This document shows, one piece after another, positions 48,222 to 64,000 of a stretch of DNA of 64,000 nt (its first letter is position 1; each line of letters starts with the position of its first letter). Source of the stretch: an uncultured Chloroflexia bacterium (GTDB taxonomy: Bacteria; Chloroflexota; Limnocylindria; Limnocylindrales; CSP1-4); assembly GCA_963834915.1 (NCBI GenBank), contig CAWIDI010000003.1, positions 259,174 through 323,173 on the forward strand. The letters are read 5' to 3'. A program made the translations under genes and the position numbers. Under the pieces are notes generated by a model. That model was not told the DNA's origin. It searched no databases and worked only from the letters and a program-made list of their open reading frames with translations.

Positions 48222-49700
48222 TCAGGAGGCCTCGCGCAGCCGGATCCACACTGTCTTCGTCTCCTGATACTGGTCATGAGCCGAAAGGGATTTGTCTCGG
48301 CCGCCGAAGCCGGACTGCCGATAGCCCCCGAACGGCGTTCCCGCGTCGCCTTCGGAGTAGCAGTTGACGCTGACGGTGCCTGCCCGGATGCGGCGCGCCA
48401 TCCGATGCGCCCGGCTCAGATCGTCGGTGTACAGCGATGCCGCGAGGCCATACGGCGAGTCGTTCGCGATGCGGATCGCCTCGTCCTCAGTACTGAAATC
48501 GATGACGGAGAGCACCGGCCCGAAGATCTCCTCCTGGGCGATCCGCATGTCATTCGTCACGCCGTCCAGCACGGTCGGCTCGACGAACCATCCGCCGGAT
48601 GACTCGCGCACGCGACGTCCCCCTGCGACCAAACGGGCGCCAGCCGCCCGCCCGACCCCGATGTAGTCCAGGACACGCTCCATGTGCGGCAAGGAGATCA
48701 GCGCGCCGATCCTGGTTTCCGGATCCATGGGGTCGCCAACGATCCAATCCCCGCGGATGATCGTGACAAGGCGCTCGAGCAGGGCGTCCTTCTGGTCGCG
48801 GTGGACGATCAAACGAGCACCGGCAGAGCAGTTCTCACCCATGTTCCAGAAGATCGCGTTGGCGACATGCGCGACGATGTCATCCAGGTCGGCCACGTCA
48901 TCCATGACCACCTGAGGACTCTTGCCACCCATCTCCAAGCTGATCCGCTTCAGATTCGATTCAGCCGAGTAGTGGAGGAAGCGACGTCCGACCTCGGCCG
49001 ATCCAGTGAACGCGACCATGTCGACGTCGTCGTGTCGTCCGAGCGCCTGGCCGACCTCGTCTCCGGTCCCGGTGACGACGTTGATGACACCTGCCGGTAA
49101 GCCCGCCTCGGACGCCAGCTCCGCGATCCGCAGGAGGCTCAACGATGTGTAGCTCGCGGGCTTGATCACGATGGCGTTGCCGGTGGCCAGGGCTGGACCG
49201 AGCTTCCAAGCGGCCATCAGTGCGGGGTAGTTCCATGGGATGACGGCGCCGACGACACCGATCGGCTCGCGCCGGATCATGGCCATCGCGTCGTCCGCCG
49301 TGGGCGCGATAGCGTCGTAGATCTTGTCGATGGCCTCCGCGTGCCACCGGATCGTGTTGGCGGTCTCCGGGATGTCGATGGTTCGGCAATCCTGCACAGG
49401 CTTGCCGGAGTCAAGACTCTCGGTGATCGCGAGTTCTTCGGTGTGCGCGTCGATGGCGTCCGCGACCGCGATCAGCACCTGCTTCCGCTCGACCGGGCTG
49501 AACGACTTCCAGGGACCATTCGACACGGCTTTGCGCGCTGCCCGCACCGCCCGGTCGACGTCGGCCGCGCCGCCGGCGGCGATGTCGGTCACGCGCCGAC
49601 CGGTCGAGGGGTCGAAGGTTGGGAGCGTGGCGCCGGATTCGGCGTTCACGAAGGCCCCTTCGATGAACATCCGCGTCCGGAGCTCGATGTCGACGCTCAT
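48222..49700 (-). CDS. NAD-dependent aldehyde dehydrogenase (PuuC-like)
   Basis: [30 protein letters not shown] and PFGGYRQSG motifs. Confidence 0.92.
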
Positions 49701-49933
49701 GCCGATTCGTCGATCACGGCGATGACGTCGCCGACCGCGACGACATCGCCGACCTCGGCGCGTCGCTCGGTCAGCACACCGCTCGTCGGCGCTTCGACCG
49801 CGGTGCTCACCTTGTCCGTCTCGACCTCGACCAATTCGTCACCCTTGTCGACCGGATCACCGACGGCCTTGAGCCATCCTGTGACGGTCGCTTCCTGCAT
49901 TGTCATGCCCCATTTGGGCAGGATCACGTCCAT
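49697..49933 (-). CDS. Stand-alone lipoyl-carrier domain
   Basis: LPKWGMTMQEA and EVETDKV lipoyl-lysine motif; 78 aa. Confidence 0.88.
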   Translation of the reverse strand: MDVILPKWGMTMQEATVTGWLKAVGDPVDKGDELVEVETDKVSTAVEAPTSGVLTERRAEVGDVVAVGDVIAVIDESA

Positions 49934-49946
49934 GACTACAGCACCC

Positions 49947-50642
49947 TCACCCTTGCATCAGCTGCGTAACGGCTTCGACGCCTTCAAGGGAATCACCGAG
50001 GGCCCGCAGGAATCGAGCGGCAGCGGCACCGTCGACCACTCGGTGGTCACTGGTCAGACAGAGCGTGACGCTCGGCGCCGTTGACACGACCCCGCCGCTC
50101 GCCCGGACACGCTCAGCGATGCGACCGACCGCGAGGATCCCGGCACTGGGAGGCACCAGCATGGCCGAGAAGGAGTCGATTCCGAGTGGCCCGAGGTTCG
50201 AGATCACGAATGTCGCGTCCGACATCTCCTCGGGACGCAATCGACCTTGGCCCGCAGCCTCCGTGAGCCGAACGCGCTCCACGCGGAACTCCTCGACCGA
50301 ACGTTGGTCAGCGTCGCGCACCACGACGACGATGAGACCCCTTGGCCCGTCGAGCGCCAAGCCGATGTGGACGTCATGGTGCCGGACGATCGCATCCCCG
50401 TCGAAGGATGCGTTGGACCCGGGGTGTCGGCGCAGCTGGCGGGCGACCGCCACCGCGAGGATGTCGGTGTACGACGGCCTGTCCGACCGCGACTCCCGGA
50501 GCCGTGCGACGGCTGAGAGATCGACGTCCAGGAAGACCGGGTATTGGGGGATCGACGCACTCAGGGTGGTCATCGTGACGACCGCCTGCCGGTGGCGCGA
50601 CAATCCGACTCGCTCGTCGAGGTCAGGACTTTCCACGGTCAC
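49947..50642 (-). CDS. 2-oxoacid dehydrogenase E2 catalytic domain only
   Basis: ATFVISNLG, ILAVG and DHRVVDG motifs; no lipoyl or E3-binding domain. Confidence 0.85.
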   Translation of the reverse strand: MTVESPDLDERVGLSRHRQAVVTMTTLSASIPQYPVFLDVDLSAVARLRESRSDRPSYTDILAVAVARQLRRHPGSNASFDGDAIVRHHDVHIGLALDGPRGLIVVVVRDADQRSVEEFRVERVRLTEAAGQGRLRPEEMSDATFVISNLGPLGIDSFSAMLVPPSAGILAVGRIAERVRASGGVVSTAPSVTLCLTSDHRVVDGAAAARFLRALGDSLEGVEAVTQLMQG

Positions 50643-51650
50643 TCAGGTAGCCGCGACGCCGACGGGCGTCGAGCGGGCATCGACCCCGAGCGTATCGAGG
50701 ATCGCCGCCCGCAGCTTCTCAGGGGAGACCAGCATCGCCGCTTCGAGCGGCGGGCTGAACGGCACAGGGACATCCTCCCAGGTGACGCGTCGGGGGGCCG
50801 CCTTCAGCGTCCCCCACTCGAGCTCGGCAGCGCGAGCGACGATCTCGCCGGCTGCGCCGCACGTCCGGCGAGCGTGGTCTGCCACGACGAGTCGTCCCGT
50901 CTTCCGGATTGACGCCGCGATCGCAGGCCAATCGAGTGGGGTTAGGGTCCGGGGGTCGACGACCTCGACGGAGTAGCCCTCACTCTCGAGTTCCTTGGCG
51001 AGATCGAGCGCCATCAGGACCAGGGGCCCGACAGCGACGACGGTGACATCGGTACCTTCGCGCTTCACGTCGGCCGACCCGAGCGGGATCTCGAATCGGT
51101 CCTCCGGGACCGGTCCCTTCTGCCCAGCGAGTGACAGGTCAACGAAGTAGATGACCGGGTTGGGGTCGCGCACGCTCGCTGCCATCAGGCCCTTCGCGTC
51201 GTACGGCGTACTCGGGTACACGACCTTGAGGCCAGACAGATGCATGAGCAGTGCATGCGGGGTCTCGGAGTGCTGCGCCGCGAGCGACCCTCCGGGACCG
51301 GAACCGGCCATGAAGACGGCCGGCAACTCGAACTGGCCGCCAGACATGTACCGCAATCGTGCAGCCTGATTCCCGAGCTGGTCCATCGTCAGATACATGA
51401 AGCTGGAGAACATCATGTCGAAGACGGGTCGAAGGCCACAGGCGGCGGCGCCGACCGACGCGCCGACGAGGACCTGCTCGGAGATCGGAGTGTTTCGCAC
51501 ACGGTCGGCGCCGAACCGGTCATATAGGCCCTTGGTGCCACCGATCGGCCCGACGACGACGTCCTCACCGATGACGATGACGGTCTCGTCGCGCTCCATC
51601 TCGTGGGCGAGCGCCTCCGAGATCGCCTTCGTGAAGTAGGTTTCGCGCAT
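50643..51650 (-). CDS. TPP-dependent dehydrogenase E1 beta (AcoB-like)
   Basis: IGEDV, NTPISE, AAQHS and VVDPRTL motifs. Confidence 0.9.
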   Translation of the reverse strand: MRETYFTKAISEALAHEMERDETVIVIGEDVVVGPIGGTKGLYDRFGADRVRNTPISEQVLVGASVGAAACGLRPVFDMMFSSFMYLTMDQLGNQAARLRYMSGGQFELPAVFMAGSGPGGSLAAQHSETPHALLMHLSGLKVVYPSTPYDAKGLMAASVRDPNPVIYFVDLSLAGQKGPVPEDRFEIPLGSADVKREGTDVTVVAVGPLVLMALDLAKELESEGYSVEVVDPRTLTPLDWPAIAASIRKTGRLVVADHARRTCGAAGEIVARAAELEWGTLKAAPRRVTWEDVPVPFSPPLEAAMLVSPEKLRAAILDTLGVDARSTPVGVAAT

Positions 51651-51661
51651 CTGATGTCCCC

Positions 51662-52660
51662 TTACGCAGCGGTTGGCGCGAACAGGTCGTCGGTGACCTC
51701 GCGGGGGTCCGGGAACGCACTTGCGTCGGCGAACTCCACAGCCGCGTCGACGCGAGACTGTTCTTCCTGGATGATCGATTCGAATGTCTCGTCCTCCACC
51801 GATCCCTCGGCGGCGAGGTAGCTCCGGATCGCGGCGATGGGATCACGAGCCATCCACGCCTGGACCTCGTCAGCCGGCCGCTTGGGAGCGCCGAAGGCCT
51901 CCTCGCCGTCCTCGTGGCCGCGGTGGCGGTACGTCACGGCTTCAATGAGCGTGGGGCCTTCCCCAGCGCGCGCCCGCGCCACGGCTTCGGCCATGACTGC
52001 TCTCATGGCCCGAACATCATTCCCATCGACCCGGGCGCCCGGGATCCCAAATGGCTCGCCGCGATCACAGATCCGCCCGGCCGTCACCTGCTCGCTCGGC
52101 ATCCATTCGTTGTACTGGTTGTTCTCGCAGATGAAGATGACGGGGAGACGCCAGATGGCGCTCAGATTCAAGGACTCCATCAGCACGCCCTGGTTGGCTG
52201 CGCCGTCCCCGAACAGGCTCACCGAGACGTTGTCCCGTCCAAGCACCTGATCGGACAACGCCGAACCGACGGCGATCGCGATCCCGCCACCGACGATCCC
52301 GTTCGCGCCGAGGATCCCGAGCGGCACGTCGCAGATGTGCATCGACCCGCCCTTGCCCTTGCAGTAACCGGTGACCCGGCCGAACAGCTCGGCCATCATG
52401 CGGTCGAGGTCCGCACCCTTGGCGATCACGTGACCGTGCCCGCGATGCGTGCTGGTGATGCGATCGCCTGTCCGCAGGACCGAACAAGCCCCGACGGCGA
52501 CGGCCTCCTCGCCGATGTAGAGGTGCGCCGACCCGGGGATCTTGCCGAGTGGCCGAAGCGCTTCAAGCTTCTCTTCGAACAACCGGATCCTCGTCATCAT
52601 GCGGAAGCAGGTCAGTAAGTCATCGCGATCGGCGATCACGCCCTCAGCGATCATCAGCAT
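51662..52660 (-). CDS. TPP-dependent dehydrogenase E1 alpha (AcoA-like)
   Basis: HLYIGEEA, STHRGHGH, GKGGSMH and TPP motif GDGA...ENN. Confidence 0.9.
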   Translation of the reverse strand: MLMIAEGVIADRDDLLTCFRMMTRIRLFEEKLEALRPLGKIPGSAHLYIGEEAVAVGACSVLRTGDRITSTHRGHGHVIAKGADLDRMMAELFGRVTGYCKGKGGSMHICDVPLGILGANGIVGGGIAIAVGSALSDQVLGRDNVSVSLFGDGAANQGVLMESLNLSAIWRLPVIFICENNQYNEWMPSEQVTAGRICDRGEPFGIPGARVDGNDVRAMRAVMAEAVARARAGEGPTLIEAVTYRHRGHEDGEEAFGAPKRPADEVQAWMARDPIAAIRSYLAAEGSVEDETFESIIQEEQSRVDAAVEFADASAFPDPREVTDDLFAPTAA

Positions 52661-52768
52661 GTCTCCTTCCTCGGTCCCGTCGCATCTCGATCGATGCGGG
52701 ATCGCCCTCGGCGACTTCGGCTCGCCGACCCGCGCAGGTACAGGCATGGACCCCCGAGCGCCGCATCG

Positions 52769-53326
52769 TCACGGAAAGACCGAGCTGGGAGCGAGGTCAG
52801 CCGGATGTCCGGACCATCCTTCGAGGATGACTTTCAACAAGGGTTCCGTGTCGAGGTAATAGAACTGACTCGCTCGTCCGAGTCGTCCCCCCATCAGCAC
52901 ACCCACGCCCGACCCGGCGAACAGGTCCCGCAAGGCGGCGGCCTTCTGATCGAGTGCCTTGACCTCGTCGTCTGTGGCTTCCCGCAACGGGCCGTCAGAT
53001 GCGGGTGGAAGGGAATAGTCCTCCGAGTCCAGCATCAAGTGGTGGAACCCCTCGCCGTGGGTCTCGAGCCACTCCTTGTAGATGCTGGGGCCCTCGCCGG
53101 GTTGGAGCAGCTCGAACCAGACCGGTCCGACCTGCGTCTCGGCCCCAAGCATCGTGAATTCGGCCGGCTCCCCGTGCAGTTCTGTCTCGTTCAGCCACGG
53201 ACGGCGGTACTCGTAGACATTCCAGGGGCCCCATCCCAGGAGTTCGTGGTACTTCTCCATCGTTGCTCGCAGGTCCTTAACGACGAGCGCGACCTGCACG
53301 ATCTTGAACGGTTGCTTCGTAGTCAC
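52769..53326 (-). CDS. VOC family protein (methylmalonyl-CoA epimerase/glyoxalase-like)
   Basis: QVALVVKDL, FELLQP, HGEGFHHL and YLDT...ILE motifs. Confidence 0.82.
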   Translation of the reverse strand: MTTKQPFKIVQVALVVKDLRATMEKYHELLGWGPWNVYEYRRPWLNETELHGEPAEFTMLGAETQVGPVWFELLQPGEGPSIYKEWLETHGEGFHHLMLDSEDYSLPPASDGPLREATDDEVKALDQKAAALRDLFAGSGVGVLMGGRLGRASQFYYLDTEPLLKVILEGWSGHPADLAPSSVFP

Positions 53327-53363
53327 AGCCGCTGCTCCCATCCAGGAATGTGGCCCCACGCAG

Positions 53364-53412
53364 AGGTGGACCGGTCAACCAGAACATAGCAATTGGTTTC
53401 TCTGGTCGTCAA
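53364..53412 (-). promoter_or_regulatory. Sigma70-like promoter plus FadR-type operator
   Basis: TTGACG-N18-TATGTT followed by TGGTTGACCGGTCCACCT. Confidence 0.7.
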
Positions 53413-53459
53413 GCGATTCGGGGACTAGCCCGGCTGATCGCCCTGCTGACCGTCAGGCC

Positions 53460-54779
53460 CTATTCGGTCCGCTCGATCACGAGCACCCAGTCCTGTGCCG
53501 ACGGCGGGACGAACTCGGCCTCCGCGGTCGTGGCACGGTCGTCTGCGGGCACGTCCTTGCCCGTGAGCGGATCGAACCAGGTGACCGAGACTCGTTGTCC
53601 GGCCATCTGACTGAGATCCAGGGTGATCGGCCGCGACATCGGCACGTAGACCATCGCCAGGCGTCCGTCAGGCGTTCGCGCCGCGCTCGCGAAATCCAGG
53701 CCGCGCAGCTCCCCGACTCCGGATGTGATGAACGGCGCGTGCGAGTCATCTCGCCACGGGACGTACTCGTCGCCACGGCTCAGGTCGGGGACGAGCTCCC
53801 ACCAGGCATGGCGGGCGAACAACGCATGCAAATGCATCTGTGCCACCCGTCCCGGCGAGTCGAGCATGGCCTGCCAGCCCGGTGCGAAGTTCCACATCCC
53901 ACGAGTGCCCATGAATTGTCCGGCGGCCCCGCACAAGATCGACCAATACGCTTGGCGCCTGATCTGGAGGTCGCTCGCGTTGTGGTCGTACTCGTACGTA
54001 GACTCGATCATGATGTTCGGCCGAGCCGGCGGGCGAAGGTAGTGCCGCAGGAGCGAGGCATGGACGATGTGGTAGGAATACGTGAAGTCGATCTCGAGCC
54101 ACGGATCGGCCGGGTACTGCTCGAACGGCGATGACTCAGGCAGGACGTGCGCACTGAATAGGTGCTTGTCGTCGACCTCGCCGATCCCGGCCGCCATCGC
54201 CCGGACATGCTCAAGCGCCGCCCCCGGATCCCGGTCCCCACCCATCGTCCAGACGATGTTCGAGAAGCGACCGAATCGCTCTCCCACGTAGCGGCCGTAC
54301 GAACGACATCCGTCGATCCCGTTGGCCAGGACCTCCGCGTTCCATCCGTCCGGCAAGTCATAGCCGTATTGCGGTCCGTACCCGTGGGGTTCCGGATAGC
54401 CGAGATAGGAAGGCACCAAGAAGACGACGATGCCGCGCTTCTCCGCCTCTCCGATGACCCAGTCCACGTGGGCCATGTACGCCTCATTCGGGGTCGCGAA
54501 GTCTCCCGCGACAAGGAATGGCTCATCGCCGTAGAGGTTCCGAGGCGGATCTGGCGCGAAGTACTTCTCGATCACGCTGACGATGATCGCGTTGAAGCCC
54601 TTGGCAGCGTCGTCATCGAGATACCGGATCGCGTCCTCTCGCCTGGTCGCAGCCACCAGAGACCACGCCGCATCACCCTGGATGAGGACGGGCCTACCGT
54701 CGGCGTCGACGAAGTACCGCCTTGTCGGACCGATACTCAGCGGAAAGGTCGGCGGCTGGCTCGTCTGCGAACTTGGCAT
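53460..54779 (-). CDS. DUF4038/GH140 (apiosidase-like) glycoside hydrolase with C-terminal beta domain, no signal peptide
   Basis: GDAAW, KGFNAI, NIVWTMGGD, ESTYE, IRRQAYWS and WFDP...DWVLV motifs. Start ATG 54779 with GGAGG SD. Confidence 0.75.
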   Translation of the reverse strand: MPSSQTSQPPTFPLSIGPTRRYFVDADGRPVLIQGDAAWSLVAATRREDAIRYLDDDAAKGFNAIIVSVIEKYFAPDPPRNLYGDEPFLVAGDFATPNEAYMAHVDWVIGEAEKRGIVVFLVPSYLGYPEPHGYGPQYGYDLPDGWNAEVLANGIDGCRSYGRYVGERFGRFSNIVWTMGGDRDPGAALEHVRAMAAGIGEVDDKHLFSAHVLPESSPFEQYPADPWLEIDFTYSYHIVHASLLRHYLRPPARPNIMIESTYEYDHNASDLQIRRQAYWSILCGAAGQFMGTRGMWNFAPGWQAMLDSPGRVAQMHLHALFARHAWWELVPDLSRGDEYVPWRDDSHAPFITSGVGELRGLDFASAARTPDGRLAMVYVPMSRPITLDLSQMAGQRVSVTWFDPLTGKDVPADDRATTAEAEFVPPSAQDWVLVIERTE

Positions 54780-54820
54780 CCATGACCTCCGACGGGCTGA
54801 CGTGCGGCGTCCATCGCCAC

Positions 54821-54871
54821 TGGTTGACCAGTCAGCCACTGACACTACTGGAGGGTCGGCAGCGATGTCAA
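54821..54871 (-). promoter_or_regulatory. Sigma70-like promoter plus FadR-type operator
   Basis: Minus-strand TTGACA-N18-TAGTGT, then operator (plus strand TGGTTGACCAGTCAGCCA, 54821-54838). Confidence 0.7.
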
Positions 54872-55033: not shown

Positions 55034-55086
55034 TTGACATGCCCCCAGCGAAAGCCATACATTCGTACTGGTTGACCGGTCTGGCA
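55034..55086 (+). promoter_or_regulatory. Sigma70-like promoter plus FadR-type operator
   Basis: TTGACA-N18-TACATT, then TGGTTGACCGGTCTGGCA (55069-55086). Confidence 0.7.
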
Positions 55087-55172: not shown

Positions 55173-56867
55173 ATGACTGAGCTCGCGTCGGGATCGGCGT
55201 TCCCTGTCTTGGGTCGACTAGCTGGACGCCGACTGATGCAACGGACGGCCCTGCTCGTGGCGATGCTTGCGGTAGCCGGGTGCGGGTCGACGACATCGTC
55301 GGGCGCGCCGAGTGGCGCGGTCGCGCCGTCGGCCCCACAAGCCTCGGCCAGCGCGGCCGGCTCCGGCGTGCCGGTCGCGGGCACGTGCCAGCCGGGTGGG
55401 ACGTTAGTGATGGCCCGCGACCAGGAACCCGACACCCTGAATCCCCTGACCGGAACGTCCAACAACGGGACCATCTTCGCGAATATGCAGGTCTTCGAGC
55501 GGCTCGTCGAGCAGACTCCTGCTAGTCGCGATCCACAGCCTGGCCTAGCCAGTTCGTGGGAGGCGGCCCCGGACGGTCTGAGCTACACGTTCCACTTGCG
55601 CCCGAGCACGTTCTCGGACGGCAACCCGGTCACTGCTGAGGACGTGAAGTTCTCGCTGGGCCGCTTCATGGACCAGGAGATCAATCTCGCCGCCGGCTTC
55701 CTGGCGGTGAACATGAAGGATGTCGTGGTCGTCGATCCGTCGACGGTCCGCGTCGACATGAAGCAAGTCGACGGTTCCATCCTCGCGGCGCTGACGCTCA
55801 TGGAGGCGTCGATCCTGCCGGAGAAGGTCGTCACCGCACTCGGTGACGAAAAGTTCGGCGAAGCGCCGGTCGGCTCGGGACCGTTCATGGTCAAGCAGTG
55901 GACGCCGGGCCAGAGCCTCGAGCTCGTTCGAAATCCTCACTACGCCGTTGAAGGCAAGCCGTACCTCGACGGCGTGACGTTCCTGCTCGTGAAGGACGAC
56001 AACGCTCGGATCCTCAAGGCGCAGTCGGGAGAAGCGCAGATCGTGCAGTCGATCCCGATCTCTCAGTCGGCCACGATCCAGAATCTGGATGGCTGGAACT
56101 TGCTCAGCGAACCGATCCTGGCTCAGGACAATGTCTGGCTCAACCATTCGTGGGATGAGAACGGGAGCAAGCCGCTAGGTGACAAGCTGGTTCGACAGGC
56201 CCTGAATCTGGCCACGCCGAAGGACGACATCAACAAGCTCGTCTTCGGTGGCCTGGCATCGATCTCGAATACCGGAACGACGATCACGCAGTTCTGGGAC
56301 AAGGACATCCCGCCGTACGCGTACGACGTCGAGAAGGCCAAGCAACTCATGGCACAATCGTCCGCACCCAACGGCTTCACTCTTCCGATGTTGATCCCGG
56401 CCGGTGACGGGGTGGCCCAGCAGACCGCAGAACTCCTCCAGCCAGCGTGGGCCCAGATCGGCGTCACCGTCGATATCCAGCCCGTGGATGAGGCGGTCAT
56501 CTCTGACCGCACACGCGATCTGGACTACGGGGCGGCGATCCGCCCGGCGACCCAGGTCACCAGCGACACTCTGGACGACAGTGAACTGGCCTCGATCATG
56601 TACGACTGGGGCACGGACTGGAAGAGCTTCTTCTCGGACTACAAGTCGGACGAGGCATCCAAGCTTGTGCATGATGCCGTCGCCACGACCGACCTCGACG
56701 AACGCCGAGCGTTGTACTCGAAGCTGCAGAAGTTGACCTTGGAGGATGCGATCTCGGTGCCGCTGGTGATCCCGCCCGCCGTGACCGCCGTCGCTGACAA
56801 CGTCCAGGGATTCAAGACTCTGCCGGCGGGCTGGTGGCTCCTGCAAGACGTGTGCCTTACCAAGTGA
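55173..56867 (+). CDS. ABC transporter substrate-binding lipoprotein (Dpp/Opp family 5)
   Basis: Lipobox VAGC; PGLASSWE, FSDGNPVTAEDVKFS, PVGSGPF and VRQALN motifs. Confidence 0.9.
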   Translation: MTELASGSAFPVLGRLAGRRLMQRTALLVAMLAVAGCGSTTSSGAPSGAVAPSAPQASASAAGSGVPVAGTCQPGGTLVMARDQEPDTLNPLTGTSNNGTIFANMQVFERLVEQTPASRDPQPGLASSWEAAPDGLSYTFHLRPSTFSDGNPVTAEDVKFSLGRFMDQEINLAAGFLAVNMKDVVVVDPSTVRVDMKQVDGSILAALTLMEASILPEKVVTALGDEKFGEAPVGSGPFMVKQWTPGQSLELVRNPHYAVEGKPYLDGVTFLLVKDDNARILKAQSGEAQIVQSIPISQSATIQNLDGWNLLSEPILAQDNVWLNHSWDENGSKPLGDKLVRQALNLATPKDDINKLVFGGLASISNTGTTITQFWDKDIPPYAYDVEKAKQLMAQSSAPNGFTLPMLIPAGDGVAQQTAELLQPAWAQIGVTVDIQPVDEAVISDRTRDLDYGAAIRPATQVTSDTLDDSELASIMYDWGTDWKSFFSDYKSDEASKLVHDAVATTDLDERRALYSKLQKLTLEDAISVPLVIPPAVTAVADNVQGFKTLPAGWWLLQDVCLTK

Positions 56868-56925
56868 GCAACGTGAGGCTCGTGTGCCGCTGCCATCTCG
56901 GCCGCCACTCCCGTGAGCCTCATCG

Positions 56926-57858
56926 ATGATCAGGTACCTGGCACTGCGCGTCCTTCAGGCAGTGCCAGTCCTGATCGGGATCAGCATCATCTCGTTCATC
57001 CTCATCCGGCTGGTGCCCGGGGATCCGATCCTTACGATGCTCGGGCCCCGGGCCTCAGAGGCATCGATCGCCATCCTGCGCGCGAGATATGGCCTCGACC
57101 AGCCCCTGCCGGTCCAGTACATCGGCTTTCTGGGCGGCGTCGCCCAGCTTGACCTTGGCGACTCGATGGCGCTCCATCGACCAGTCGCCTGGTTGATCGC
57201 GACGCGTGCCGGGCCGACCTTCCTTCTCATCTTCTACGCGACCACGATCTCCTTCCTGGTCGCCCTTCCGTTGGCCGTGTACTCCGCAGTCAAGGCCAAT
57301 CGGCTGCCGGATCAGACGATCCGGGTCGTCATGATGGTCACCTTCGCGATGCCCGCCTTCTGGCTCGGGCTGATCTTGATCCTGGTGTTCAGCCTGAAGC
57401 TGCACTGGTTCCCGGCATCCGGTCTTGGCGAAGGTGTCCTGCCGTTGATCTGGAGCTTGACGCTGCCGGCGATCACGATCGGGCTCTATCTCGCCCCGGT
57501 GCTCATCCGCACGCTTCGCTCGAGCATGATCGAAAGCCTCAACGCCGACCACGTCGAGGCCGCGCGCGCGCGCGGGTTGTCCGAGGGTGTGATCCTGCGT
57601 CGCCACGTGCTTCGGACCTCGTTGATCGCAACGGTCACTATCGTCGGGGTCAATCTTGGGTTCCTGATCAGTGGCTCGGTCGTGGTCGAGAACGTCTTCG
57701 CCATCCCTGGCTTGGGCAGTCTGCTCGTGAACGCGGTGAGCACAAGAGACTTCCCCTTGATCCAGGGGATCGCCCTGTTTCTCGGTGTCGCGGTGGTCGC
57801 TCTCAGTCTGGCAACGGACCTGGTCAACGTCATGATCGATCCGAGGATCCGGAGTTGA
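56926..57858 (+). CDS. ABC permease, DppB-like
   Basis: PGDP, GLDQPLPVQY, ARARGL, VVENVFAIPGLG and RDFP motifs. Confidence 0.9.
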   Translation: MIRYLALRVLQAVPVLIGISIISFILIRLVPGDPILTMLGPRASEASIAILRARYGLDQPLPVQYIGFLGGVAQLDLGDSMALHRPVAWLIATRAGPTFLLIFYATTISFLVALPLAVYSAVKANRLPDQTIRVVMMVTFAMPAFWLGLILILVFSLKLHWFPASGLGEGVLPLIWSLTLPAITIGLYLAPVLIRTLRSSMIESLNADHVEAARARGLSEGVILRRHVLRTSLIATVTIVGVNLGFLISGSVVVENVFAIPGLGSLLVNAVSTRDFPLIQGIALFLGVAVVALSLATDLVNVMIDPRIRS

Positions 57859-58745
57859 ACGCTGGCGAGGCGACCCCCGGGCTCGACCACTTGGGGCTCG
57901 AGGCACCGCTCGCCACCGCGGGCGGGAGTCGGTTCGCGGAGGCAGGACTATGGGTCGGGCTCGCAATCGTCCTTGGCATCGCTGGGCTCAGCGTCGCGGC
58001 GCCCGTCCTTCCGATCCCGGATCCGAACGCGATCGACGTCGGGGCCGCCCTGATGCCACCGTCATTGAGCCACCTGTTCGGGACTGACAATCTCGGACGG
58101 GACATGTTTGCCCGCGTCGTCTACGGCGCACAGATCGACCTGCTCCTCGGGGTCGTCACGACCTACGTTTCACTCATCATCGGTGTGTCGGTGGGCGCCT
58201 TTGCCGGCTACTTCGGTGGCAAGCGCGACACCATCCTGATGCGTCTCGTCGACACCCTGATCGCGTTTCCGTTCATCGTGCTCGTGCTGGCGATCGTCGG
58301 TCTGGTGGGGCCTGGGCTGATCGGTGTCTACATTGGGATCATCATCGTGAGTTGGACCGTCTATGCACGCATCACGTACTCGGAGATGCTCGTTCTTCGC
58401 GAACGCCAGTTCATCCTCGCTGCCCAGACCCTCGGCTTCAGCGACGCGCGCGTGATCTTCCGGCATGCGATCCCGAACGCGCTCCGGCCAAACATCATCT
58501 TCTCGCTTTCCGACGTCGTCCTGAACATCCTGGCGCTGGCGGCCCTTTCCTACCTGGGTGTCGGCGTCAAGCCTCCGACGCCGGAACTCGGCGCCCTGAT
58601 CGCCGGCGGGCAGCAGTACCTCTTGACGGCGTGGTGGATCGCCACCTTGCCGGGTCTCGTGATCGTCGTGATCGGAATCGGATTCGTGCTCCTGGGCGAA
58701 GGCGTCGCCGACCGCTTCAGTTCACACCAGGTTTCAAAAGCATGA
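57855..58745 (+). CDS. ABC permease, DppC-like
   Basis: HLFGTDNLGRD, RHAIPN and LSYLGVG motifs. Confidence 0.9.
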   Translation: MNAGEATPGLDHLGLEAPLATAGGSRFAEAGLWVGLAIVLGIAGLSVAAPVLPIPDPNAIDVGAALMPPSLSHLFGTDNLGRDMFARVVYGAQIDLLLGVVTTYVSLIIGVSVGAFAGYFGGKRDTILMRLVDTLIAFPFIVLVLAIVGLVGPGLIGVYIGIIIVSWTVYARITYSEMLVLRERQFILAAQTLGFSDARVIFRHAIPNALRPNIIFSLSDVVLNILALAALSYLGVGVKPPTPELGALIAGGQQYLLTAWWIATLPGLVIVVIGIGFVLLGEGVADRFSSHQVSKA

Positions 58746-59752
58746 ATCAGGTCGCAGAACGGCTCGGGTCCGACGCGTCGCCGAGCAGGGCCCTGCTCGA
58801 GGTGGCCGGCCTCACGGTCGCGTTCCCGACGCCGCGGGGGATGATCTATCCGGCGAAGGACGTTTCATTCCGAGTCGATCCCGGACAGACGGTCGGGCTA
58901 GTCGGCGAATCCGGTTCGGGAAAGAGCGTCACGCTCCGAGCCATCCTCGGGCTGGTGCCGAAGCCTGGGCGTATCGTCCGTGGCCGGGTGATGCTCGACG
59001 GACGCGACCTCGTCGCGGCTGGTGAAGCCGTCCTGCGTGGTGTGCGCGGTACCGAGATCGCGATGATCTTCCAGGATCCGATGGCGAGCCTCAATCCTGT
59101 GCTATCGATCGGGGACCAGCTGTCAGAGACTCTCCGCATGAAGCTTGGTCTCAGCAAACGTGACGCGATGTCCCGCGCGGAGGAGTTGCTCAACCGCGTT
59201 GGCATCAGTCCGGCCAGGCGGCGATTGAAGGCGTACCCGCATCAGTTGAGTGGTGGCATGGCCCAGCGGGTCATGATCGCGCTCGCCATCGCTGGGAATC
59301 CGAAGGTCCTGCTTGCAGACGAACCCACCACCGCCCTCGACGTCAGCGTCCAGGACCAGGTCCTGTCCTTGCTTGAGGAACTTCGTCTGGAATCGGGGAT
59401 GAGCATGATCATCGTGTCGCACGACATGGGCGTCATCGCACGGTCGTGCGATTCGGTCGCCGTGATGTATGGCGGCAGCCTCCTCGAACGGGGCAGCGTC
59501 GATGAGGTTCTGCGCGAACCGAGGCATCCGTACACGAGGATGCTCCTTGGCGCCATCCCCGCGCTCAGACCGAACGTCGAGCGTCGCCAGCTGGCATCGA
59601 TCGCAGGGCAGTTGCCGGATCTCGCGAGCTTGACAGGTGGTTGCCCGTTCGCGGCTCGCTGCGCGTTCGTTCGGGATGACTGCTCTCGGATCCCGGTCAT
59701 GCTTGATGCCGAAGCCGGTGCGCACGGCTCGGCCTGCCCGTTCGTCGGATGA
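58742..59752 (+). CDS. ABC ATPase, DppD-like
   Basis: GESGSGKS, LSGGMAQR, ADEPTTALD and GCPFAARC motifs. Confidence 0.92.
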   Translation: MNQVAERLGSDASPSRALLEVAGLTVAFPTPRGMIYPAKDVSFRVDPGQTVGLVGESGSGKSVTLRAILGLVPKPGRIVRGRVMLDGRDLVAAGEAVLRGVRGTEIAMIFQDPMASLNPVLSIGDQLSETLRMKLGLSKRDAMSRAEELLNRVGISPARRRLKAYPHQLSGGMAQRVMIALAIAGNPKVLLADEPTTALDVSVQDQVLSLLEELRLESGMSMIIVSHDMGVIARSCDSVAVMYGGSLLERGSVDEVLREPRHPYTRMLLGAIPALRPNVERRQLASIAGQLPDLASLTGGCPFAARCAFVRDDCSRIPVMLDAEAGAHGSACPFVG

Positions 59753-60843
59753 CCGGCATGGATAACCTCCTGACCCTCGACGGCGTCATGAAGTCGTTCG
59801 CCACCGGAAGGAGCAGCCGCTCGAGCTCTGGCGGTCACCGACGGATCGTCGCCCTCGACGGGGTCAGCCTGGCCGTCAGCAAGCGGGAAGTCCTGGGACT
59901 CGTCGGCGAGTCGGGAAGCGGCAAGTCGACCCTTGCTCGCTGCGTGGTCCGTCTCGTGGAGCCCGACGCGGGCTCCATCCAGTTCGACGGTCAGGACGTC
60001 CTGCGGGCGGATTCCCGTTCGCTTCGCGTGATCCGCCGCCGGATGCAGTTGATCTACCAGGATCCGTACTCGTCGTTAAATCCAAGGCTACGCGTGGGGG
60101 ACGCGATCGCCGAAGCGGCCCGTGTCCACCGACTCGTCCATGGCCGCGACGAGGAGGACGCCCTCGTGGCGGAGTTGCTCGATGCCGTCGGCCTGTCCGG
60201 CACCGACGCGCGTCGCTACCCAAGGGAGATGTCCGGCGGTCAGCGACAGCGCGTCGCGATCGCCCGATCACTCGCAGTGAAGCCGGACATGCTGATCGCC
60301 GATGAGGCTGTCAGCGCACTGGATGTCTCGGTCCAGGCGCAGATCCTCAATCTCTTCTCGGCGCTTTCGTCCGATCGCCACCTCGCCATGATCTTCATTT
60401 CACATCAATTGGCGGTCATCGCCCAGTTGGCGCAACGGGTGGCGGTCATGTACTTGGGACGGATCGTCGAAGTGGGCGACACGTACGAGGTCTTCACGAA
60501 CCCCCAGCATCCGTACACGGCACTCCTGCTCGCGGCACATCCGACGGTCGAACAAACGCGCCATCGCAGCGCCCCGGTCCTGCAGGGGGAGATCCCGTCT
60601 CCTGATGCCATCCCGTCTGGGTGCCGGTTCCGGAGCCGGTGTCACCTCGCCCAGGCGATCTGCGAGACGGTCGATCCCCCGCCCGTCGACGTGGGCGATG
60701 GGCACATCTCGTGGTGTCATGTGGTGCCCCGGGCGCAAAGCGCCGATCGCGCGACGCCTGTGGGCGCCGGCTCGCTCCCGGCAGGGAGCAGCCCTGCGGA
60801 CCACGGGCATCCTGACCCGGGAATGTCAGAGGCCGCGCCGTGA
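59749..60843 (+). CDS. ABC ATPase, DppF-like
   Basis: GESGSGKST, MSGGQRQR, DEAVSALD and GCRFRSRC motifs. Confidence 0.92.
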   Translation: MTGMDNLLTLDGVMKSFATGRSSRSSSGGHRRIVALDGVSLAVSKREVLGLVGESGSGKSTLARCVVRLVEPDAGSIQFDGQDVLRADSRSLRVIRRRMQLIYQDPYSSLNPRLRVGDAIAEAARVHRLVHGRDEEDALVAELLDAVGLSGTDARRYPREMSGGQRQRVAIARSLAVKPDMLIADEAVSALDVSVQAQILNLFSALSSDRHLAMIFISHQLAVIAQLAQRVAVMYLGRIVEVGDTYEVFTNPQHPYTALLLAAHPTVEQTRHRSAPVLQGEIPSPDAIPSGCRFRSRCHLAQAICETVDPPPVDVGDGHISWCHVVPRAQSADRATPVGAGSLPAGSSPADHGHPDPGMSEAAP

Positions 60844-60916
60844 ACTGACGGATGGGTTCAGGAGGCCCTAGTCTCTCAACATCCTCCCGGACACGGGCCG
60901 ACGCATTGGGGGTGCC

Positions 60917-61669
60917 ATGACCGAGATCGACAATCTGGGCCCGCTCGGTCCCATCGCGAACTACCCACGCGACGCGCTTCCGGTCGAAGTCGCGAGGCGA
61001 ATCCTGACGTACCTCCTGGAGGGCCGTGTCGCACCAGGTCAATTGATCCCTTCCGAGCGCCAACTGGCCACCGCGCTTGGTGTCGGCCGGTCGATCGTCC
61101 GCGAGGCCCTGAAGTCCCTGACCCTGCTCGGCATCATCGAGGTGCGTCCAGGGATCGGGACCTTCCTTCGACGGATGGACTCAGCCGTGCTCCCGCAATC
61201 GATCGAGTGGGGATTGATGCTCGGCCAGCCCGGAATCGCGGACATGGTCGAAGCGCGTCGCTATCTCGAGGTCATCCTCGCCGAGCTGGCGGCGGCCCGG
61301 CGGACCGACGCTGACGTCGATGCGCTGCGCGCGTTCGTCGAAGAGATGAACGCGTCAGCAGATGACCCCCCGCGATACGTGCAGGCCGACATCGACTTCC
61401 ACTTGCGGGTCGCGCGTGCGTCCGGCAATGCGTCACTTGCCGGTGTCATCAATAGCATCCGTTCACTCCTGCAGGTGTGGATCGCACGTGTCACGGATGA
61501 CGGCGGGGTCAACCTGGATTCACGGCGCGAGCACCAGGACATCCTCGATGCGATCGAGCGCGGCGATCCGTCAGCCGCTCGGGACGCGATGAAGACGCAC
61601 ATGGATGCGGCCTATGCCCGTCTCGGAGATACGCTCCCATTTGACATCGAGAAGCTCGCGCGCTCCTGA
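60917..61669 (+). CDS. GntR/FadR family regulator
   Basis: PSERQLA...VGRSIVREAL HTH; FCD domain (ADIDFH, SGN, EHQDI). Confidence 0.92.
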   Translation: MTEIDNLGPLGPIANYPRDALPVEVARRILTYLLEGRVAPGQLIPSERQLATALGVGRSIVREALKSLTLLGIIEVRPGIGTFLRRMDSAVLPQSIEWGLMLGQPGIADMVEARRYLEVILAELAAARRTDADVDALRAFVEEMNASADDPPRYVQADIDFHLRVARASGNASLAGVINSIRSLLQVWIARVTDDGGVNLDSRREHQDILDAIERGDPSAARDAMKTHMDAAYARLGDTLPFDIEKLARS

Positions 61670-61709
61670 CGGTCGCCCGATGTGGGGTCCATCGTCCACA
61701 TACGGCATC

Positions 61710-62672
61710 TCAGAAGATCGCGATCGGATTCCAGGGCGATCCCGTCCCTCCCGGTAGCCGGAGCGGGATGCCCACCACGAGGAATGCATACCGGCCCTCT
61801 TGTTCGCACACCTGACCAAGATCTTCGAGTTGCAGGCTGTCAGCGGCGAGCATCCCCATCGCTGCGATCTGCAGGGCATGGATGGGGTCGGCCAGCCCGT
61901 CTACCGTGCTCGGCACCGTCTCACCATCTCCGTCGGGCAGGAACGCAGCGATCCCGCGTTCATGCATCCACGGAATGGTGTCCACATGGAGACCGGCCTT
62001 GCCCTCGCCAGCCGGCAGATCGCCGTTGTCCCACGGGCCGAGGGCGAGTCGACGTGCGTGATGACCCGTGCGGAAGACCAGGATGTCCCCCTCGTCCAGG
62101 TGCACACCCTGCGCGATCTCGCACGCCTCCATCTCCGATCGTCCGACGGCCTCGCCCGGTTCGAGCCAGTCGACTCCGCGGAACCGCGGGATGTCGATGA
62201 GGACGCCTCTGCCGACGACCCCATGCGCGTAGCTCTCGATACCCTGGGTCGTCGCGCCTCGACTGTTCAGGACATCGCCCGCGGGCTTCCCGTTATACGT
62301 CATGCCGCGATACGCGACGTGACACAGGGCGTCGACATGGGTGTGGCAGTCCCCATGGCAGGCGATTCCGAGAAAGTCCATGGCGAACTGCGGGCTGACG
62401 GCGCTCGAGTCGACGTCATAGCCCTGGCTGACGAGGTGGATCGCTGGGTTCGCGTTGTCCGGACCGGCGACTGTATTGATCGGAATCGCCATCGACACCT
62501 GACGCCCGGATCGCACGAGCCCTGACGCGGCCCGGATGTGTTCCGGACGAATGAGGTTGAGTGTGCCCAGCTGGTCGTCAAGGCCCCAGCGACCCCAGTT
62601 CTTCACCGATTCGAACAGGGCATCGAATTCGGCGATCGACACGCGGCTCGACGGGCGTTGCTCGAAAGTCAT
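61710..62672 (-). CDS. Cyclase family (kynurenine formamidase-like) metal hydrolase
   Basis: NWGRWG, HGDCHTHVDALCH, GRGVLID, RTG and GGTGSP motifs. Confidence 0.85.
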   Translation of the reverse strand: MTFEQRPSSRVSIAEFDALFESVKNWGRWGLDDQLGTLNLIRPEHIRAASGLVRSGRQVSMAIPINTVAGPDNANPAIHLVSQGYDVDSSAVSPQFAMDFLGIACHGDCHTHVDALCHVAYRGMTYNGKPAGDVLNSRGATTQGIESYAHGVVGRGVLIDIPRFRGVDWLEPGEAVGRSEMEACEIAQGVHLDEGDILVFRTGHHARRLALGPWDNGDLPAGEGKAGLHVDTIPWMHERGIAAFLPDGDGETVPSTVDGLADPIHALQIAAMGMLAADSLQLEDLGQVCEQEGRYAFLVVGIPLRLPGGTGSPWNPIAIF

Positions 62673-62756
62673 CCTGTGGCCTCCCGACGATCGATGAAGC
62701 GCCCGGCCAGACCACGCGGCCAGAACCTTGTGGTTGGCCAGCGCCCCGGCATGACA

Positions 62757-63527
62757 CTACGTTGCGGCCATTCCTCCGTCGACCACGAGCGCCGCCCCGG
62801 TGACATACGACGCTTCATCGGATGACAGCCAAAGGATCGCGGCCGCGACTTCGTCCGCAGATCCCATCCGCTTGAGCGGGACCTGGGACACCCAGAAGTC
62901 ACGTGCCTCGACGTCCCGCGTCAACGGCTCGTTCATCGGGGTGTCGATGACGCCGGGGACGACCATGTTGACGCGGATGTTGGCCTTCGCGTAATCGATG
63001 GCCATGACGCGCATGAGGGCGAAGACACCGCCCTTGCTTGCACTGTAGCTCGGCTCCTCGGTGGCGACGCCAAGGAAGCCGAGGTTCGAACCCAGGCATA
63101 CGACGGACCCGCCTCCCGACCGGAGGAGTTGCCCGATGCCGTGCTTGCAGGCAAGGAATTGACCGGTGAGGTTGACGTCGAGGACGTGCTTCCAGGTGCG
63201 GAGGTCCAGCTCGTGCACGTGACCTTCCTCGATCTCGATGCCCGCGCTCGCGACGACGATGTCGAGGCCGCCCCAGCTCGCACCAACCTGGTCCACGAGG
63301 AGGCTGATCTGCGACTCATCGGATGCGTCCGCGGCGAACGCCAGGCACTCGCCTCCGAGCTTCTGGATCTCGGATGCAACGTGGTCGAGTCCATTCTGAT
63401 TTCGCGCAACGATCGCGACACGCGCACCTTCGGCGGCCAGACGGGTGGCCACGGCGCGACCGATGCCTTTGCTCCCCCCGGTGACGAGGGCTCGCCTGCC
63501 TTCGAACCGACGACCTGAACCAGACAT
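62757..63527 (-). CDS. SDR family oxidoreductase
   Basis: TGGSKGIG, VNL, YSASK and PGVIDTPM motifs. Confidence 0.92.
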   Translation of the reverse strand: MSGSGRRFEGRRALVTGGSKGIGRAVATRLAAEGARVAIVARNQNGLDHVASEIQKLGGECLAFAADASDESQISLLVDQVGASWGGLDIVVASAGIEIEEGHVHELDLRTWKHVLDVNLTGQFLACKHGIGQLLRSGGGSVVCLGSNLGFLGVATEEPSYSASKGGVFALMRVMAIDYAKANIRVNMVVPGVIDTPMNEPLTRDVEARDFWVSQVPLKRMGSADEVAAAILWLSSDEASYVTGAALVVDGGMAAT

Positions 63528-63542
63528 CGCCTACTCCTCGAC

Positions 63543-63560
63543 TGGTTGACCGGTGACCCA
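63543..63560. promoter_or_regulatory. FadR-type operator (fourth copy)
   Basis: TGGTTGACCGGTGACCCA between the SDR SD and a minus-strand TACGAT -10-like hexamer (63564-63569). Confidence 0.65.
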
Positions 63561-63645
63561 TCTATCGTACAGACCTGGGCGACCGGTTGGTGAGCCGCGC
63601 TATCATCCCTGCCGTGGATCAGGCGCTCGACAAAGCGGAGGGTGT

Positions 63646-64000
63646 GTGTCCCTAGCCCCGGTCGGCCTACATGCGGTCGATCCCCGCGAGCACGAGTCGG
63701 TGTCGACGGAGGTCACACGGAGACTCGCGAGCTATCTGCTCGATGGCAATGTCCCTCGCGGAGAGCGCATCCCATCGGAGCGTCGGCTCGCGGAAGTCTT
63801 CGGGGTAGGGCGATTCGTGGTCCGCGAGGCCGTCAAGACGCTGGCGACGATCGGCATCGTCGAAGTCAGGCAGGGCGACGGTACTTACTACCGGCGCCGC
63901 GGCGACTCGGTGCTCCTTTCGACTGTCGTCGAATGGGGCTTACTGCTCGACTCCGGTCGCATCGAAGAACTGATCGAGGCGCGGCGATTGATCGAGGTCG
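63646..64000 (+). CDS. Second GntR/FadR family regulator (3'-truncated; absent from ORF track)
   Basis: GGAGG then GTG 63646; reads EVTRRLASYLLDG...IPSERRLAEVFGVGRFVVREAVKTL, a clear paralog of 60917-61669. Confidence 0.88.
   Translation, partial: MSLAPVGLHAVDPREHESVSTEVTRRLASYLLDGNVPRGERIPSERRLAEVFGVGRFVVREAVKTLATIGIVEVRQGDGTYYRRRGDSVLLSTVVEWGLLLDSGRIEELIEARRLIEV

Follow-up and report, generated by a model that had tools for sequence, protein, structure and literature searches.

A candidate repressor-controlled regulon for an amine-bearing, glycoside-like compound in a Limnocylindria-like Chloroflexota genome

Characterized members of glycoside hydrolase family 140 (GH140) are very few, and all are linked to plant pectin. 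One of them, BT1012 of Bacteroides thetaiotaomicron, is a beta-D-apiofuranosidase with catalytic residues Asp187 and Glu284. The D-apiose and D-apionate routes described by the Gerlt laboratory in 2018 have an oxidative start (dehydrogenase plus lactonase) and are marked by ApnO, OiaK/OiaC, a RuBisCO-like protein and a split transketolase, as set out in PMC13753588. Cleavage of a ketose to a glycolyl unit by a thiamine diphosphate (ThDP)-dependent E1 and a lipoyl E2 is described for QncN/QncL/QncM and SclQ1-4 of Streptomyces. We analyzed a 64,000-nt stretch of DNA (the window; G000:C3:259174-323173) from an uncultured Chloroflexia bacterium whose assembly, G000, comprises 2,541,764 bp (2.54 Mb) in 8 contigs with 71% GC. 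It contains most of a catabolic island with GH140-like hydrolases, a Dpp-type importer, a short-chain dehydrogenase (SDR), a "cyclase"-family hydrolase and a ThDP/lipoyl enzyme set; a pyridoxal 5'-phosphate (PLP) enzyme lies just beyond. In the reading that we favor, and to which we give about an even chance, the island is one horizontally acquired, repressor-controlled regulon for a glycoside-like compound that carries an amino group, with substrate identity and step order deduced from the genes. We favor an amine-bearing glycoside because PLP-dependent amine enzymes, aminotransferases and amino-acid permeases keep company with the island genes, as do glycine-cleavage-like genes in one genus.

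The operator and its regulators

A preliminary description of this DNA had proposed that four transcription units carry the same operator. The proposal held. The 13-mer CTGGTTGACCRGT has 4 exact copies in the whole assembly, where base composition predicts 0.11, and all 4 lie within 10.2 kb. They precede the unit encoding a VOC protein, E1 alpha, E1 beta, an E2 catalytic core, a lipoyl carrier and an aldehyde dehydrogenase (ALDH); the GH140-like gene; dppABCDF-fadR; and the divergent pair SDR-cyclase/fadR2. At up to 2 mismatches the window holds 8 matches, whereas 100 shuffled versions averaged 2.11 and none reached 8. A fifth copy with 1 mismatch, CTGGTCGACCGGT, lies past the window end, directly upstream of a second GH140-like gene (GH140b). 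The 13-mer is half of an 18-bp palindrome (TGGnnGACC followed by GGTCnnCCA), which is found at 5 island sites and is kept in 4 other genomes. Three 1-mismatch copies outside the island, including those on contigs C5 and C7, all fall inside open reading frames (ORFs) and were taken as chance. The exact sites are as follows, with their surroundings.

53370-53412 (-): operator O1 (53370-53382), directly behind promoter-like TTGACG-18-TATGTT (53412-53383)
54820-54832 (+): operator O2, itself a 12-bp palindrome, 40 nt upstream of the ATG of GH140a
55034-55080 (+): promoter-like TTGACA-18-TACATT (55034-55063), then operator O3 (55068-55080)
63542-63587 (+): operator O4 (63542-63554) and, at 63575-63587, a second, weaker site with 2 mismatches; both between the SDR gene and fadR2

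Since O1 and O3 stand directly after promoter-like hexamers, they hold the position expected of a repressor site. The island encodes two candidate repressors.

60917-61669 (+): FadR-subfamily GntR regulator 1 (fadR1); PF00392 and PF07729
63553-64000 (+): 5' part of FadR-subfamily regulator 2 (fadR2), which continues past the window end; PF00392 in the window

The whole of regulator 2 (L001:727-1548, where L001 is the locus continuing past the window end and window coordinate equals L001 + 62,826) has both PF00392 and PF07729, and its true start is probably downstream of 63553. The two regulators are 45-46% identical, each with an N-terminal GntR winged helix-turn-helix (wHTH) and a C-terminal FCD domain. 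The dppF-fadR1 junction has no operator of its own; hence, we regard fadR1 as the last gene of the dpp unit. The operator sites support a single repressor-controlled regulon, with FadR binding to the palindrome predicted. In combining wHTH and FCD domains with a palindromic operator over the promoter, the system is like FadR-subfamily GntR regulons for acids (NanR, LldR and UxuR/ExuR types); unlike them, it has two paralogous regulators and a LysR gene.

Importer and enzymes of the island

The island exceeds the window and continues with the remainder of regulator 2, GH140b, LysR, lipoyl synthase (lipA), the PLP enzyme (on the other strand) and a SnoaL-like ORF. Its importer and enzyme genes are listed below.

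53460-54779 (-): GH140-like hydrolase a (GH140a), ATG at 54779; PF13204 (204.8 bits) and PF12904 (51.3 bits)
55173-56867 (+): family-5 solute-binding lipoprotein; PF00496 (283.6 bits), lipobox LAVAGC
56926-58745 (+): two ABC permeases (56926-57858 and 57855-58745); PF00528
58742-60843 (+): two ABC ATPases with oligo_HPY tails (58742-59752 and 59749-60843); PF00005 and PF08352
61710-62672 (-): "cyclase"-family metal hydrolase; PF04199 (57 bits against a cut-off of 23.1)
62757-63527 (-): short-chain dehydrogenase; PF13561 (218.7 bits)
G000:C3:327468-328646, past the window: PLP enzyme of the D-threonine-aldolase/DSD1 family; PF01168 and PF14031
52769-53359 (-): VOC/glyoxalase-fold protein, first gene of its operon; PF13669 (33.9 bits)
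51662-52747 (-): ThDP-dependent E1 alpha; PF00676 (247.8 bits), TIGR03182 (325.9 bits, below the cut-off of 393.85)
50643-51650 (-): ThDP-dependent E1 beta; PF02779 and PF02780, NCBIfam pyruvate dehydrogenase (PDH) E1 beta (280 bits, below the cut-off of 321)
49947-50642 (-): stand-alone 231-aa E2 acyltransferase core, DHRVVDG motif; PF00198 (190.5 bits, profile positions 4-229 of 232)
49697-49933 (-): stand-alone 78-aa lipoyl carrier with an ETDK lipoyl-lysine motif; PF00364 (66 bits)
48222-49700 (-): ALDH, last gene of the operon, its start overlapping the lipoyl stop by 4 nt; PF00171 (554 bits)
45790-47058 (+): class I/II aminotransferase at the left end of the island, about where the GC drop begins; PF00155 (254 bits)
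47039-48040 (+): D-isomer 2-hydroxyacid dehydrogenase, glyoxylate/hydroxypyruvate-reductase-like; PF02826 and PF00389

The ORF listing and Pfam bear out every family named in the preliminary description, including the GH140-like one at 53460-54779. NCBIfam gave no equivalog assignment for any island enzyme.

GH140b, which is 57-59% identical to GH140a, matches PF13204 at 178.9 bits (cut-off, 26.5) and PF12904 at 39.4 bits. The best solved relative of GH140a is 8T9W (5e-35), named "Apiosidase," on which a literature search turned up nothing; BT1012 (3KZS) follows at 7e-21. Asp182 of a GGD motif and Glu259 are invariant in 22 relatives. The Asp aligns with the GGD of 3KZS, the position of BT1012 Asp187, and Glu259 would correspond to BT1012 Glu284 by way of the 8T9W alignment, the 3KZS stretch there having failed to align. 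The island enzymes share with BT1012 (3KZS/5MSY) and 8T9W a PF13204 barrel and a PF12904 beta-sandwich, and the GGD Asp and a Glu after a beta-strand are candidate counterparts of the catalytic pair; they are distant, come as two paralogues, are cytoplasmic and belong to no polysaccharide-utilization locus; their neighbors are PLP, SDR and lipoate enzymes rather than the pectin enzymes of the BT1012 setting. Neither GH140a nor GH140b has a signal peptide, whereas the binding protein has a lipobox, so hydrolysis would take place in the cytoplasm, as had been proposed.

The importer set is complete for the Dpp/Opp type (family-5 binding protein, two permeases and two oligo_HPY ATPases). The nearest solved relatives of the binding protein are AapF (9.7e-57), 5U4O (an unnamed protein), HbpA and the agropinic-acid binder AgaA. 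AapF and AgaA take small amino compounds rather than oligosaccharides, so the suggestion that this family-5 protein imports oligosaccharides now looks less apt, to judge from these relatives.

The SDR is generic by NCBIfam and PDB, and its PDB matches are uninformative. The cyclase-family protein matches the solved structure 5IBZ at 1e-45, and a profile reaches isatin hydrolases, as distant relatives, at 6.5e-4. All of 20 relatives keep residues H106, H112, D114 and H118, a candidate for the His/Asp metal motif of the PF04199 family. This fits a putative metal hydrolase acting on an amide or a lactone. The PLP enzyme has as its best solved relative a D-threonine aldolase (3e-52) and is also close to D-3-hydroxyaspartate aldolase; it scores 227 bits against the BhcC model (cut-off, 690). 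With PF01168, PF14031 and the conserved RPHxKxHK lysine region, it resembles the family of D-threonine aldolase, BhcC and the DSD1 D-serine dehydratase.

The genes from VOC to ALDH are tightly packed, with spacing from a 21-nt gap down to a 4-nt overlap. The preliminary description called the E1 pair AcoAB-type; this was not established. The pair of E1 alpha (PF00676) and E1 beta (PF02779/PF02780) is common to AcoAB, PDH and branched-chain 2-oxo-acid dehydrogenase (BCKDH) and does not discriminate. No AcoA-specific model was among the E1 NCBIfam matches, the best being PDH E1 alpha and beta, below cut-off, and the best solved relative of E1 alpha is human PDH E1 alpha (2.6e-57). The AcoC model was matched by the lipoyl protein only (positions 6-79 of 372): instead of a single-chain AcoC-type E2 with its own lipoyl domain, there are separate genes for lipoyl carrier (78 aa) and core (231 aa), and the core has neither a lipoyl domain nor an E3/E1-binding domain. 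Its 18 closest database relatives are likewise core-only (204-235 aa). Like AcoABC and PDH, the complex has a ThDP-dependent E1 alpha/beta of the heterotetramer type, a lipoyl domain and an acyltransferase core with DHRxxDG; it differs in its split E2, its reversed gene order, the missing E3/E1-binding domain, the lack of an E3 gene in the island and the presence of a lipoyl synthase. By description it is like the Qnc/SclQ system in pairing a ThDP enzyme with lipoyl/acyltransferase proteins, a precedent for a sugar-derived ketose as substrate; that system is biosynthetic and passes the glycolyl unit to acyl carrier protein (ACP), whereas the island has a catabolic context and no ACP. Functional matches of the VOC protein were to methylmalonyl-CoA epimerases only and were weak (E = 0.0025; 26.7 bits in NCBIfam), and its PDB match is uninformative. 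The 2-hydroxyacid dehydrogenase matches NCBIfam glyoxylate reductase at 386.5 bits, under the cut-off of 455.

G000 has another E1 alpha/E1 beta/E2 set on contig C1. Adjoining these housekeeping genes is a second lipA copy (G000:C1:224428-225516), which shares 99.1% identity with the island lipA (G000:C3:326367-327456; L001:4368-5457) across 1,090 bp. GC at third codon positions (GC3) of the island lipA is 0.99, against about 0.75 in its neighbors. The near-identical pair could be due to gene conversion between paralogues or to an assembly effect in this metagenome-assembled genome (MAG). We assign lipA to the island because a lipA 84% identical to it stands at the same place in a related genome, G659.

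Conservation, origin and wider neighborhoods

We compared the locus with those of G659 (G401; locus L002) and G817, which belong with G000 to genus g1, and of G592 and G700, from a second genus, g2. A core of Dpp, GH140, SDR, cyclase, FadR, PLP enzyme and LysR genes is present in all 5 of these genomes, from 2 genera, and the VOC-E1-split E2-ALDH tail is present in 3 of them, all of g1. The presence of the PLP enzyme in 5 of 5 core genomes argues for an amine-bearing substrate over a plain apioside. G659 keeps synteny throughout (73-92% identity) apart from a single rearrangement, and GH140b, LysR, LipA and the PLP enzyme follow as in G000. All parts are found in G817 in a different order (46-94% identity, only FadR falling below 62%); orthologues of the aminotransferase (77%) and 2-hydroxyacid dehydrogenase (78%) are divergent there and adjoin VOC-E1, and a gene of the FMN-dependent 2-hydroxyacid oxidase type marks the cluster edge. 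G592 and G700 keep the cyclase, PLP enzyme, LysR, SDR, FadR, Dpp and GH140 genes at 50-76% identity. The operator recurs at orthologous positions in all four relatives, with 10 matches in G659 (0.84 expected) and a perfect palindrome, TGGGCGACCGGTCGCCCA, before the SDR gene of both G592 and G700. Homologues of the island genes are thus found together in other genomes; their absence would have counted against the preliminary description.

Two further features were seen in the g2 loci. A divergent two-subunit glycine-cleavage P-protein pair stands beside the cyclase and PLP enzyme genes (L135:14081-17067, minus strand, in G700; L134:18505-19905, minus strand, in G592); identity to the canonical copy is 34%, and the score is 170 bits compared with 388. 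The pair may be a lipoate-dependent decarboxylase of another amino acid, at the place where g1 has E1/E2. A Pfam-less protein of 415-438 aa is encoded between the SDR and FadR genes (L119:4551-5867, plus strand, in G592; L121:6196-7443, plus strand, in G700; 81-82% identical), and G000 has no homologue of it.

More widely, the distribution is patchy. Of 401 genomes sampled within the family, 2 have the E2 core (E <= 1e-50). GH140a relatives occur in 13 of 391 genomes of the order at E <= 1e-80 and in 2 of 401 phylum genomes at E <= 1e-60, and the cyclase occurs in 43 of the 401 phylum genomes (E <= 1e-30; the tally includes G145 and G344, flagged as unpublished). E1 alpha has matches at E <= 1e-90 in 103 of these 401 (a tally that likewise includes unpublished-flagged genomes, G344, G227 and G038), yet the best non-self match among them is 54% identical, and no orthologous operon was found there. 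Plasmids gave only generic relatives of E1 alpha, 46-50% identical. One of them, Rhizobium sp. plasmid NZ_CP072144.1 (264519-293502; L116), has an E1 alpha/E1 beta/E2 set, its E1 alpha 46.5% identical to that of the island, directly after genes for a sorbitol/glucitol phosphotransferase system, a sugar-binding regulator and an oxidoreductase, which suggests another sugar-linked E1/E2 complex.

Between about window positions 45,800 and 70,000, GC drops from 70-76% in the flanks to 61-70%, and the island itself has 62-68% compared with 71% for the genome. A tRNA-Gly(CCC) gene sits at the GC boundary (L001:7567-7642; about window 70,393-70,468). The same tRNA gene is found in G817 (L117:13159-13234), about 1.3 kb from the cluster edge, and G659 has a tRNA-Thr(CGT) gene some 4.5 kb away from its ALDH end. 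By appearance, the tRNA genes at the edges look like insertion sites of the island. Lower GC, tRNA flanks and patchy distribution, taken together, indicate probable horizontal acquisition.

Around 16 loci with cyclase relatives, VOC genes (35-51% identical) stand beside the cyclase in 4, which are 4 of the 5 loci with a cyclase of 56% identity or more; those beside cyclase orthologues in G365, G109 and G091 are 49-51% identical. A 2-hydroxyacid dehydrogenase is present in 5 of the 16 loci and an SDR in 7; E1, E2, ALDH and full-length GH140 are found in none (0 of 16). Pfam further assigned amino-acid permeases, the PLP enzyme, DUF4432, phosphotriesterase-family and YhfZ-type genes, as well as a dihydroxyacetone-kinase/TIM/RpiB/class-II-aldolase/FGGY set. 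Among 80 metagenome loci with GH140a relatives of 45-56% identity, tblastn found an SDR in 21, the PLP enzyme in 16, E1 beta in 2 (at 29% identity only), the cyclase in 1 and ALDH in 1; VOC, E1 alpha and E2 were found in 0 of 80. Family counts were made on the 39 GH140a loci of at least 8 kb, with families named from Pfam on 7 loci.

SDR: 19 of 39 loci
Class-III aminotransferase: 17 of 39
TonB-type outer-membrane protein: 15 of 39
PLP enzyme: 13 of 39
Dak1: 12 of 39
Dak2: 11 of 39
Amino-acid permease: 10 of 39
DeoC-type aldolase: 9 of 39
ABM: 9 of 39
SMP30-type lactonase: 7 of 39

Matched by size alone, two contigs (33.8 kb and 38.7 kb) each appear to carry a GH140 and an E2-core relative; the former also appears to hold a cyclase relative, and a 37.4-kb contig appears to hold both GH140 and cyclase relatives. 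Given the dihydroxyacetone-kinase and tetrulose-type genes at related loci, a short sugar fragment may be processed differently in other lineages. Such tetrulose links, together with a proposed oxidative start by dehydrogenase and lactonase, are shared with the D-apiose/D-apionate routes as given in PMC13753588, which involve neither PLP nor lipoate enzymes.

A second variant recurs at L127, L129, L130, L133 and L019 (G500, G599, G592:C7, G700:C7 and G365). It consists of a YhfZ-type regulator, a tandem-VOC fusion and an SDR (55-59%), with a GH140-like gene at 47-48% (partial in G365) and a cyclase at 73% in G500 and G365. The two annotated loci (G500 and G700:C7) have a family-8 ABC importer, and a DUF5060-bearing GH140 relative is also found in two loci.

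The island flanks hold several other long ORFs. On the left, window positions 43245-45668 have overlapping ORFs of 781 aa (minus strand) and 739 aa (plus strand), with a weak papain-family match (23.2 bits) as the sole Pfam hit. Just beyond the island on the right, at native GC, L001:9623-13306 (+) encodes a 1,227-aa protein with three NPCBM domains, five Big_5 domains and a CopC-like stretch; adjoining it, L001:7840-9684 (+) encodes a 614-aa glucose/sorbosone-dehydrogenase-like protein, also at native GC.

Candidate substrates and routes

For the amine-bearing glycoside, the following scheme can be proposed. When inducer is absent, one or both FadR-type (GntR/FCD) regulators would sit on the 18-bp palindrome, at or just downstream of each -10 element, with autoregulation probable. 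Acidic effectors are usual for FCD regulators, and the inducer here would probably be an acidic intermediate. The lipoprotein-anchored family-5 ABC system would import a small glycoside-like compound, which GH140a and GH140b would cleave in the cytoplasm. The SDR might then oxidize the released unit and the PF04199 hydrolase open or deacylate it, as a dehydrogenase plus lactonase/amidase pair, and the fold-type-III PLP enzyme would act on an alpha-amino-acid-like intermediate. The simplest chemistry would be that of an amino sugar oxidized to a 2-amino-aldonate. A PLP- and Mn-dependent D-glucosaminate dehydratase with aldolase activity is described in old reports, which our literature search did not recover. 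In genus g1 only, the remaining carbon fragment, either a ketose/hydroxyketone or a 2-oxo acid, might pass to the VOC protein (as isomerase or epimerase), the ThDP E1, the split lipoyl E2 and ALDH, to give an acyl-CoA and a carboxylic acid, with E2 lipoylation supplied by the island lipoyl synthase. The aminotransferase and 2-hydroxyacid dehydrogenase at the edge may handle C2/C3 oxo- and hydroxy-acids.

The preliminary description had instead proposed a neutral glycoside, an apioside or other branched sugar, that is imported, hydrolyzed, oxidized by the SDR, opened by the cyclase, isomerized by the VOC protein and cleaved by an acetoin-type E1/E2 to an acyl-lipoamide and an aldehyde, which ALDH oxidizes, with no amino group at any point. 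We consider this unlikely. The GH140-like fold, the conserved, putatively catalytic Asp and Glu and the name of the best solved relative speak for it, as do an ALDH gene translationally coupled to the E2 genes (fitting an aldehyde product), dihydroxyacetone-kinase, RpiB, TIM and class-II-aldolase genes near cyclase and GH140 relatives (tetrulose-type, as in apiose route 3) and the precedent of QncN/L/M and SclQ1-4 for conversion of a ketose to a glycolyl unit. However, it leaves the PLP enzyme, aminotransferases, amino-acid permeases and glycine-cleavage-like genes unexplained; identity to characterized GH140 enzymes is low; the acetoin-type label of E1 found no backing; and no evidence was found behind the order from SDR through cyclase ring opening and VOC to E1/E2. 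The known D-apiose pathways, as PMC13753588 presents them, were rejected: Pfam on the island proteins, the set searched, found no family of ApnO, OiaK/OiaC, RuBisCO-like or split-transketolase enzymes, nor a four-carbon-acid kinase gene. A plain apioside thus lost ground, the conserved PLP enzyme and its amine-linked neighbors pointing elsewhere.

It is similarly improbable, in our estimation, that the tail is an ordinary 2-oxo-acid dehydrogenase, in which the PLP enzyme (as a dehydratase) or the aminotransferase yields a 2-oxo acid, possibly pyruvate, for conversion to acyl-CoA, the VOC protein being an acyl-CoA epimerase and ALDH acting on a separate aldehyde. The family and structure matches of E1 alpha and beta to PDH, the weak epimerase matches of the VOC protein, the D-threo-3-hydroxyaspartate and D-serine dehydratases within the PLP family and the 2-hydroxyacid and FMN-dependent dehydrogenases of the G000 and G817 clusters, which fit lactate/glycolate-to-oxo-acid steps, are all in keeping with it. 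Yet none of the scores reaches the PDH equivalog cut-offs, a separate E1 alpha/E1 beta/E2 set is already present on C1, and a split, domain-poor E2 with its own lipoyl synthase suggests a dedicated system. Least probable of all, in our view, is a mosaic of separate functions under a common regulator, for example Dpp uptake of a peptide or opine-like compound beside unrelated GH140, SDR/cyclase and E1/E2 activities. Module distributions do differ (tail in g1 only, cyclase in 43 of 401 and GH140 relatives in 2 of 401 phylum genomes), gene order is rearranged among G000, G659 and G817, and the binding protein is similar to proteins that bind opines and amides; nevertheless, the same operator precedes every unit across two genera, the core genes stay together through the rearrangements, and the two size-matched contigs appear to combine GH140 with the E2 core.

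Several observations weigh against the amine-bearing glycoside as well. The PLP enzyme has PGYAPST where 4V15 has PSHVDPT and 6QKB has PGHCDPT, so that Tyr-x-Pro takes the place of the His-x-Asp found in solved D-threonine and D-3-hydroxyaspartate aldolases, the Tyr being invariant in 9 of 9 cluster-linked relatives. His-x-Asp in aldolases, or His-x-Cys in dehydratases, presumably provides the metal ligands. Because of this replacement an aldolase reaction is not to be assumed; the enzyme appears to form a separate branch of the D-threonine-aldolase family, for which an aldolase, dehydratase or racemase reaction is possible. The E1-E2 tail may serve another purpose, since VOC, E1, E2 and ALDH are all missing within 20 kb of the core in G592 and G700 and the tail is missing from the 80 metagenome loci, save for the two low-identity E1 beta matches. 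G000 has no operator upstream of the aminotransferase or lipA and only a half site before the PLP gene; with no full operator there, synteny is what places these three genes in the regulon. Several metagenome loci are near-duplicates (L075/L077, L044/L045 and L098/L100), so the counts are upper values, and SDRs are so common that some neighborhood counts are possibly inflated. G000 is a MAG rated 68.7% complete and 0.23% contaminated, and none of the analyses identified the substrate.

No described pathway matches the gene combination within the literature searched (main texts, largely outside subscription journals, and including PMC4032388), in agreement with the preliminary description. Substrate-specific catabolic regulons are a familiar type; what stands out in this one is the cytoplasmic GH140 pair, the aldolase relative that lacks the metal site and the split E2 with its own lipoyl synthase. 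The last, a core-only E2 with a separate carrier, is unusual for a 2-oxo-acid or acetoin-type complex and recurs in a small protein family. A bolder extension of the amine-bearing reading, which we offer as speculative and rather unlikely, is a hitherto undescribed amino-sugar-glycoside route that Limnocylindria-like Chloroflexota of soil would have in common with other bacteria there. GH140-like enzymes of the cytoplasm or periplasm would free an amino sugar, the SDR and the lactonase/amidase-type hydrolase would convert it to a 2-amino-aldonate, and the metal-site-less PLP branch would split or deaminate this, yielding glycine or a 2-oxo acid. A dedicated E1/split E2, confined to one genus and served by its own lipoyl synthase, would cleave the remaining short ketose or oxo acid to an acyl-CoA and an aldehyde. 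If true, this would bring lipoate-dependent cleavage of a sugar fragment into catabolism. The cytoplasmic placing of a large soil GH140 clade, beside PLP, SDR and lipoate enzymes, implies a substrate that is different from those of the pectin-linked members and probably contains nitrogen. An 18-bp operator kept across two genera marks the regulon off sharply and makes it a clean experimental system, and the island is an example of the probable transfer of a whole pathway beside a tRNA gene in a poorly studied phylum.

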